A stretch of DNA of 64,000 bases from a virus (lineage: Duplodnaviria > Caudoviricetes). Numbering within the stretch: position 1 is the stretch's first letter; every line of letters begins with the position of its first letter. The notes below the pieces were generated by a model, which searched no databases, had not been told where the DNA came from, and saw nothing but the letters and a program-made list of their open reading frames with translations. Position numbers and translations under genes: made by a program. The DNA lies in the IMG/VR virus record IMGVR_UViG_2891339218_000001, positions 8,933 through 72,932 of that record; one strand, given 5' to 3'. This document shows, piece after piece, positions 7,624 to 8,066 of this stretch.

Positions 7624-7631
7624 GGTGGTTC
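7617..7631. promoter_or_regulatory. Possible alphaproteobacterial LexA box GTTC-N7-GTTC over the start codon
   Basis: gttc catggtg gttc; about 2 such matches are expected by chance in 64 kb. Confidence 0.4.
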
Positions 7632-7655
7632 TCTCGGATCGAACCGGCTTCTCAC
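7630..7655 (-). promoter_or_regulatory. Downstream antisense target b2/a2 at the RBS of the acidic-protein gene
   Basis: Transcript GUGAGAA...CCGAGAGA, 6 nt before AUG 7623. Confidence 0.7.
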
Positions 7656-7714
7656 GGCCGGCGGCGTATCGTCTTCTCACAGATCGATCAGCCTATGCCG
7701 GTGACAGACCGGCA

Positions 7715-7795
7715 GCCGGGGGGTGAGAACCAGCCGAGAGACTGGCGCGACGTTTTTAAGGTTTCCCTCTGGACAGAACGGCGCACCCCGGCCAT
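7715..7795 (-). ncRNA. C4/CI-like antisense RNA
   Basis: Closing stem GCCGGGG/CCCCGGC; loops a' UCUCUCGG (7734-7741) and b' GUUCUCAC (7723-7730) are complementary to target pairs upstream (7923-7943) and downstream (7630-7655). Confidence 0.75.
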
Positions 7796-7922
7796 AAAGG
7801 TCGGGTCGCATCCGTGCCGCCAAGCACGCGCGTCGAGGAACTGCGAAGCGCACTCCTCATTCAACCGCCGCCCAACGCCGCCAAGCGTCAGGGCAATTCC
7901 TGCCAAGGAATTGTGTGCGGTC

Positions 7923-7943
7923 TATCTCGGTCCGGGTTCTCAC
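7923..7943 (-). promoter_or_regulatory. Upstream antisense target b1/a1
   Basis: Transcript GUGAGAAC-ccgga-CCGAGAUA; 8/8 and 7/8 complementary to b' and a'. Confidence 0.7.
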
Positions 7944-8066
7944 GCCCACGGACAACTTGCCTGATTTGATACCGACATTCAAGCACACCCTCGCCAAAGG
8001 GTGGATGCTTGCGTTGATTATCGACCTCTGCCACCGTTGCTCGCGAGGGTAGATTCGGAGGGGTGA

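Follow-up and report, generated by a model that had tools for sequence, protein, structure and literature searches.

A candidate C4/CI-type antisense RNA cassette in the leader of an integrase gene row of an alphaproteobacterial mobile element

An RNA cassette ahead of the integrase gene row

The 64,000-nt stretch of Caudoviricetes DNA analyzed here, referred to throughout as the window (IMG/VR record IMGVR_UViG_2891339218_000001, positions 8,933 to 72,932), carries on its minus strand a leader (elements at 8003-7630) that is followed by genes for an acidic protein, two small open reading frames (ORFs) and a tyrosine integrase. The original prediction, made from the letters of this DNA, read the leader as an antisense RNA switch of the kind known as C4 in phages P1 and P7 and as CI in P4. 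In this scheme a structured RNA presents two boxes, a' and b', which are complementary to one pair of target sites upstream (b1 and a1) and to another downstream (b2 and a2), the last of these lying on the ribosome-binding site (RBS) of the first gene. Our analysis supports this core reading of a C4/CI-type antisense RNA cassette. On the computational evidence the cassette is a real feature of the locus, with its fold, the co-variation of its boxes at three places and its position at the start region of the first gene established by sequence comparison.

Coordinates are those of the whole window, and the leader is read on the minus strand (Table 1). All of the motifs named in the original prediction were found at the positions it had given, and a repeat search returned the complementarities as I3 (13 nt, 92%), I5/I6 (8 nt, 100%) and I12/I13 (7 nt, 100%). 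Some details required correction. The structured unit that carries both boxes is 89 nt long and not about 80; box a', described as exposed, lies partly in a hairpin loop, while its outer bases fall in the hairpin stem of the consensus fold; and although a1 does pair with a', it does so over only 6 of its 8 bases (CCGAGA, 7930-7925), leaving the trailing UA unpaired. At the downstream end of the leader, a2 covers a Shine-Dalgarno-like GAGAGA and ends 6 nt before the ATG (7623-7621). The first of the two downstream GUGAGAA copies is also present at one related locus (L006; related loci and genomes carry L and G numbers), and is present with one mismatch at another (L004). The hairpin directly behind the unit is not followed by a U run, and no terminator-like site was called between the unit and the gene, the nearest lying inside the gene (7598-7583).

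A putative promoter motif contains the predicted TTGAAT (7982-7977), and CTTGAC or CTTGCA is conserved at its position in the alignment of homologous leaders. The hairpin just upstream of it has counterparts in the aligned homologues, with stems of varying sequence and different loops. Hairpins with a UUGGCR hexaloop occur four times in the leader and five times on the minus strand of the entire window, with none on the plus strand; the bare UUGGCR motif occurs about 55 times per strand. Three of them stand between a1 and the unit in 10 of the 13 homologous leaders, and in the window a variable hairpin sits among these three (7913-7813). The UUGGCR hairpins may be a binding site for a factor.

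Table 1. Features of the leader and of the genes behind it, in the order of the minus-strand transcript.
Feature	Coordinates	Strand	Description	Basis
UUGGCG hexaloop hairpin	7986..8003	-	6-bp stem; directly upstream of CTTGAA	hairpin scan
CTTGAAT	7977..7983	-	-35-like motif; putative promoter	sequence
GUCC...GGAC hairpin	7930..7953	-	loop holds upstream target 1 (b1)	sequence, repeat search, covariation
b1 (upstream target 1)	7943-7936	-	GUGAGAAC; as 9 nt, GUGAGAACC at 7943-7935, adding the next C	
a1 (upstream target 2)	7923..7930	-	CCGAGAUA	sequence, covariation
Three UUGGCR-hexaloop hairpins	7913-7894, 7892-7871, 7828-7813	-	unlike stems	hairpin scan
Structured unit	7710..7798	-	89 nt	R1 match (92.9 bits), RNAalifold, pair counts
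a' box	7734..7741	-	UCUCUCGG; loop and inner stem of hairpin 2	sequence, repeat search, consensus fold
b' box	7730-7723	-	GUUCUCAC; as 9 nt, GGUUCUCAC at 7731-7723	
Hairpin straight after unit	7696..7714	-	stem sequence varies among homologues	repeat search, alignments
First downstream copy of target 1	7674..7680	-	GUGAGAA, inside a variable hairpin	repeat search, alignment
b2 (second downstream copy of target 1)	7649..7655	-	GUGAGAA, conserved	repeat search, covariation
a2 (downstream target 2)	7630..7637	-	CCGAGAGA	repeat search, covariation
Acidic protein gene (first gene)	7042..7623	-	193 amino acids (aa); 53 D/E, 15 K/R; G+C at third codon positions (GC3) 0.76	translation
81-aa ORF	7045-6800	-	overlaps end of acidic protein gene by 4 nt	
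113-aa ORF	6604-6263	-	after a gap	
Tyrosine integrase gene	6260-4977	-	Phage_integrase, E 5.3e-20; starts 2 nt past the stop of the 113-aa ORF	

The boxes and their flanking sites change together

The complementarity between the boxes and the flanks was expressed as a two-box score, in which b is followed by a within a short gap. On either side the window scores 15. Mononucleotide shuffling of the flanks, repeated 2000 times, never gave this value (maximum 13), and a'/b' pairs from 34 other loci, when placed on the window's flanks, reached at most 10 upstream and 12 downstream.

Covariation among homologous leaders, the lack of which the original prediction had given as a refuting outcome, was observed, with the boxes changing together at three places in 13 leaders. 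These 13 full leaders were aligned with MAFFT; L042 and L045 had been dropped beforehand, and their downstream 'matches', which have no adjacent start codon, were treated as chance. Upstream (b1:b' and a1:a'), 96.4% of cells are paired, with compensatory changes in 9 of the 15 pairs (35 cells). Downstream (b':b2 and a':a2), 91.3% of cells are paired, a value lowered by columns that are misaligned in four or five rows, and 7 of the 15 pairs are compensatory (32 cells). Neither value was matched in 500 shuffles, and slid controls gave 21-48% upstream and 26-50% downstream. Homologues in which b' is GGUUUCUAG have CUAGAAA as both b1 and b2, and those in which a' is UCGCGG have CCGCGA as both a1 and a2.

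The pairing is also specific to the locus. The cognate upstream pair beats every non-cognate a'/b' in 32 of 36 loci, the exceptions being three at which no site was found and one tie, and the upstream pairing is kept in 19 of 23 further units. The cognate downstream pair does so in 15 of the 36 loci, L042 and L045 among them; in 13 loci the end of a2 lies 5-10 nt before an ATG. Among the 13 leaders there are ten distinct a'/b' combinations, with reassortment of the two boxes. The mean duplex energies are -22.3 and -25.3 kcal/mol for cognate partners and -15.4 and -14.1 kcal/mol for non-cognate ones.

The structured unit folds as a three-way junction

In the RNAalifold consensus, which comprises 29 pairs, an outer stem closes a three-way junction. 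In hairpin 1 the motif AUGUCCAG...UUAAA is conserved. Box a' belongs to hairpin 2, and the six or seven unpaired bases behind that hairpin carry b', which spans the end of this hairpin and the single-stranded junction. In an independent MAFFT alignment of 11 sequences, 12 of the 29 pairs show compensatory changes. When 36 members are aligned, pairing holds in 93.7% of cells and compensatory changes are found at 21 of the 29 pairs, no shuffle out of 500 being as high and slid controls giving 34-51%; this larger alignment was fitted to a covariance model of the unit, R1, and thus favors the structure. The 5' side of the window's unit is preceded by UAU, directly ahead of GG, and GCC follows the stem (GCCG). 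In many distant members at class level (L076-L079, L082, L068, L071 and others), CACCA or CGCCA stands right behind the closing stem, in the manner of a tRNA acceptor end.

Relatives of the unit are spread among genomes of the family

Ten homologous leaders were obtained when 400 genomes of the family were searched at the DNA level, and BLASTN of the leader against phage and plasmid collections gave no match. The covariance model R1 was built from 11 units, the window's included, and its full-length match to the window's unit at 92.9 bits is met by construction. Within the family, R1 finds full-length copies in 27 of 151 genomes (26 of 135 genera), with up to five copies per genome; this corresponds to independent members in 26 of the 150 other genomes. 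Matches were obtained in 12 of 151 genomes at the level of the order and in 13 of 151 at the level of the class, where each of these tallies counts the window's own genome, which has one copy, and the class tally includes the unpublished genome G587, which contributes to no other result. In all three genomes for which two copies were fetched (G148, G084 and G146), the copies differ in at least one box. Tandem units were seen at L068 (1501-1598 and 2008-2118, about 500 nt apart); they have the b' core in common and differ in a'.

One of the members lies on the Ti plasmid pTiC58, where R1 matches 150,020-150,111 (L066:14021-14112) over its full length with 38.4 bits (E 2e-8), 60 nt before traM. 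Further members of the family lie in traM leaders at L045, L049, L050, L053, L057 and L062. Upstream of the pTiC58 unit stand a b1, placed in the loop of a hairpin, and an a1 that match its boxes, the sites lying 58 nt before the unit compared with 145 nt in the window; pTiC58 is a repABC conjugative plasmid, whereas the window represents an integrating element. In the accessible part of Lee et al. (2013; PMC3738593, supplementary file 1) the start site of traM is given as 149,937, and a noncoding RNA (ncRNA), pTi_149938F, is listed at 149,938-150,154 in the 5' untranslated region of traM, with reads per kilobase per million mapped reads (RPKM) in the thousands. The R1 match falls inside pTi_149938F. 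As far as that part of the source goes, this shows that one member of the family, the traM leader, is transcribed at a high level; it applies to the plasmid copy and does not extend to the window's own. No description of an RNA element or of RNA control in the traM leader was found in the literature searched. We also considered whether the family is QfsR, a published small RNA (sRNA) of repABC plasmids, and rejected this because QfsR maps to 139,075-139,262 on pTiC58, where R1 has no match. Matches to Atu_Ti1 near some of the loci are antisense to traB and were set aside as unrelated.

Genes behind the leader and the surrounding element

Homologues of the acidic protein stand behind the leader at three other loci (L009, L008 and L004). 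The small family to which the protein belongs (L008, L004, L009, L031 and L032) has conserved IERLI..LD and ENEHGGDILDEPHD motifs; its two Shinella members, L031 and L032, were found by DNA homology and have no R1 unit within 3 kb. The original prediction had extended the RNA control to the small ORFs and the integrase. The integrase does belong to the same tightly packed gene row here and ends the row at L009 and L098, whereas most of the homologous leaders precede other genes. Elsewhere the first gene after the leader codes for a Rha-like regulator (L038), for TraM, the anti-activator of TraR (six loci), or, mostly, for proteins without known identity.

Five loci were enlarged to 17-19 kb, and in these the cassette lies near the edge of a mobile element, beside host genes. 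L098 repeats the order of the window, with small and large terminase, a 643-aa protein, the leader, the ORFs, the integrase and then host genes. The window contains two sets of phage head and packaging genes, at 12493-20939 and 30848-40853. In the first of these the terminase genes lie behind the head-tail connector genes and not ahead of the portal gene, as is also seen at L098. A 621-aa protein encoded on the minus strand at 37252-39114 combines Phage_portal_3 (E 7e-110) with an Acb1 anti-CBASS domain (E 9e-41). Diverging from the leader on the plus strand (8067-9456) are three genes with a lower GC3 (0.51-0.61), one of which matches phrog_37309; the group resembles cargo placed between the leader and the structural genes.

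A proposed mechanism and its alternatives

We propose that the window encodes a C4/CI-type antisense RNA that hides the start region of the acidic-protein/integrase operon, a reading to which we assign a probability of roughly 0.7. The 89-nt RNA would fold as a three-way junction and present a' in the loop of a hairpin and b' in the adjacent single strand, from where the two boxes would pair with a2 and b2 downstream. Since a2 lies over the Shine-Dalgarno region and ends 6 nt short of the start codon, pairing there would keep the first gene from being translated, and with the tight packing of the genes it should also reduce how strongly the ORFs and the integrase behind it are expressed. The upstream b1, in its hairpin loop, and a1 would act as a decoy or a second target, like a1/b1 of P1 and seqA of P4. 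By analogy with C4 and CI, RNase P probably cuts the unit from the leader transcript between UAU and GG, and the freed unit would act on transcripts freshly produced by the same element, with the variable boxes giving each element its own specificity. We infer that the unit is processed and works in trans, that its effect reaches the integrase by polarity, and that its role is to keep the operon silent in the established state.

A number of observations weigh against this reading. A search with the Rfam C4 model (RF01695, gathering score 45 bits), which the original prediction had put forward as a check together with the c4 target models, gave no match at E<=10, either in 7400-8200 or across the whole genome, and none at E<=1 in 20 related loci, while the same model scored its positive controls, P1 and P4 CI, at 68.8 and 74.9 bits; c4-a1b1 (RF03163, gathering score 46.7 bits) likewise had no match at E<=10 in 7400-8200. 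In the reverse direction R1 scores P1 c4 at 8 bits and P4 CI at 11.9 bits. Because of the lack of an Rfam C4 match and these low scores, the unit cannot be shown by model to be homologous to C4. Taken by itself, it has an ordinary fold energy (z = -0.78), and support for the unit comes from comparison. Downstream b2/a2 sites within 150 nt were not found in 21 of the 36 family members, and the feature common to most members is the upstream pairing and not the masking of an RBS. The pTiC58 unit has no convincing b2/a2 before traM, nor was a second site found anywhere on the plasmid. A sigma-70 scan of 7000-8800 returned no site on the minus strand, so that the promoter of the original prediction stands as a motif with conserved counterparts, though not as a called promoter. 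No family in Pfam, PHROG or NCBIfam includes the acidic protein, and a protein atlas gave only unnamed clusters for it. Finally, a search of sequencing runs with window positions 7000-8200 gave no RNA run and only two metagenome runs (word shares 0.05-0.06).

The predominance of the upstream site favors a serious, if less probable, rival, in which the leader is a purely cis-acting two-state switch without a free small RNA. Pairing of a'/b' with b1/a1 would then be the ON state and pairing with b2/a2 the OFF state, with folding kinetics, a protein or a ligand deciding between them. Such a switch accounts well for the presence of all three co-varying sites in one leader, for the upstream pairing being the one most widely kept (counts as given above) and for the many members, traM leaders included, that have only the upstream site; a factor could be bound by the conserved UUGGCG-loop hairpins, three of which separate a1 from the unit. 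With the outer stem closed, however, pairing of a'/b' with either site would form a pseudoknot. The tRNA-like ends of the unit (UAU before GG, the closing stem, and GCC or CACCA) fit excision by RNase P as in C4, and the many specificities, together with copies that differ within each of the three genomes named above, fit discrimination in trans between elements.

Six further b-gap-a matches were found in the window's own genome outside the leader, and these raise the alternative that the unit is a trans-acting sRNA directed at host genes, of the kind claimed for sRNA-Xcc1 and for plasmid sRNAs such as QfsR, with the matches in its flanks being secondary. The nearest Rfam family to the unit is sRNA-Xcc1, which the available part of its literature describes as trans-acting and linked to virulence. 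As trans targets the six matches were rejected: all of them lie inside ORF-like sequence without start-codon context, and about three are expected by chance on our estimate. The flanks moreover co-vary with a'/b' across loci, which a host target could not do across genera, and we consider this alternative very improbable. That the complementarities reflect chance in a GC-rich, repeat-bearing spacer, or remnants of integration sites, would agree with the ordinary fold energy, but barring alignment error this is already refuted by the comparative data, namely the flank shuffles, the compensatory changes at three places in 13 leaders and the R1 copies in the family's genomes.

Relation to known systems

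The C4 and CI antisense RNAs are textbook immunity regulators known from enterobacterial phages. The immI region of P1 and P7, which Citron and Schuster are said to have described in 1990, reportedly comprises a1-b1, the c4 RNA, a2-b2, icd and ant. In the P1 record the order is a1, b1, c4, a2, b2, icd; the window has a like order, with the last target by the start of the first gene. The predicted layout of target, antisense unit and target, the last on the RBS, is thus the order annotated in P1, and P4 shares the same build. The window's unit has the structural marks of C4, with a closing stem, a three-way junction, one box in the loop of hairpin 2 and the other in the single strand behind it, and it has the P1-type arrangement of two-part complementarity to upstream and downstream site pairs within one leader, the downstream site overlapping the translation start region of the first gene. 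The structure line of P1 C4 in Rfam shows the same architecture of closing stem, hairpin 1, long-looped hairpin 2 and 7-nt single strand. In P1 it is a1 (UUGACAG) that pairs with the single-stranded junction, as the window's b1 does, so that the topology given in the original prediction is that of P1 whereas its letters are swapped, its b being the a of P1. Mature P1 C4 starts right after UUAU, and the window's unit is preceded by UAU. In P1/P7 and in the window's family alike, the box sequences vary between related elements.

There are also clear differences from P1. The closing stem has 10 bp in the window compared with 17 in C4; hairpin 1 is longer than that of C4 and has its own conserved motif; and the window has three additional UUGGCG-loop hairpins that separate the unit from its upstream targets. 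The genes behind the cassette are those of the acidic protein, the small ORFs and the integrase instead of icd and ant, and unlike that of the P1 system the host is an alphaproteobacterium. The second hairpin of the c4-a1b1 motif has a counterpart in the window, with a core identical to that of P4, while its first hairpin has none.

The likeness to P4, a satellite phage whose CI RNA comes with seqA and seqC, extends to the letters. In P4 CI, as in the window, a GGG/CCC hairpin holds the first target in its loop and the second target follows shortly after, and the P4 loop CGUGAGAA and junction box UUCUCAC agree with the window in every letter. The P4 upstream hairpin and the window's b1 hairpin are identical over the inner GGGC-GUGAGAA-CCC, a 15-base core (P4 at L110:1116-1193 and 921-1008, window at 7947-7933 and 7729-7723), and the CI junction box is the window's b'. 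This identity reflects either common descent or the same specificity arising twice. Both RNAs lie in the operon leader of a mobile element. P4 CI acts via premature transcription termination; the window's last site, unlike that of P4 CI, is on the RBS, and the other box also differs from P4. No P4-type genes were noticed in the window.

Only one Rfam family, sRNA-Xcc1 (RF02221), aligns with the window's unit over its full length, with 19.8 bits (E 1.2); relatives of the unit score at most 31.5 bits, and neither they nor the unit reach the gathering score of 53 bits. Conversely, R1 scores four loci that pass the RF02221 cut-off at 31.6, 21.3, 19.2 and 18.6 bits (E 5.9e-6 to 0.018), and both models match the same two places in genome G683. 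These scores suggest, but do not prove, a distant relationship. Among the four sRNA-Xcc1 loci L085, L086, L090 and L092, two-box sites are present upstream in three and just before the start codon downstream in three, which suggests that sRNA-Xcc1 may itself be a C4-type cassette and not only a free virulence sRNA. The accessible part of the published work treats it as a trans-acting, virulence-linked sRNA of integron cassettes and not as a C4-type cassette.

It is tempting to extend the comparison further. As a tentative possibility, C4/CI, sRNA-Xcc1 and the alphaproteobacterial branch may form one large uncatalogued superfamily, in which a two-box 'address' lets each mobile element silence only its own decision operon. 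Its elements would include prophage-like islands, possible capsid-forming satellites and repABC plasmids, and its operons the integrase row of the window and TraM, the anti-activator of quorum-regulated conjugation on Ti-type plasmids. If true, RNA-based immunity would be a general control layer in the alphaproteobacterial mobilome, and the traM leader RNA an unrecognised regulator of a classic quorum-sensing circuit; the family offers an explanation for the abundant, uninterpreted RNA in the traM leader of the Ti plasmid. Since the cassette precedes the integrase gene row, RNA, and not only a protein repressor, may gate integration or excision functions.

In the part of Weinberg et al. (2010) that was available, c4 is listed for 'Proteobacteria, phages', and no description of C4-type RNAs in Alphaproteobacteria was found in the literature searched. 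What the window presents is C4/CI logic, with strong co-variation, in an alphaproteobacterial lineage outside all Rfam models, and R1 provides a handle on this family in about one in six of the Rhizobiaceae genomes sampled. Taken together, we read the window's RNA as a divergent branch of one C4/CI/Xcc1-like group, with workings like those of C4 and a place outside every curated family.
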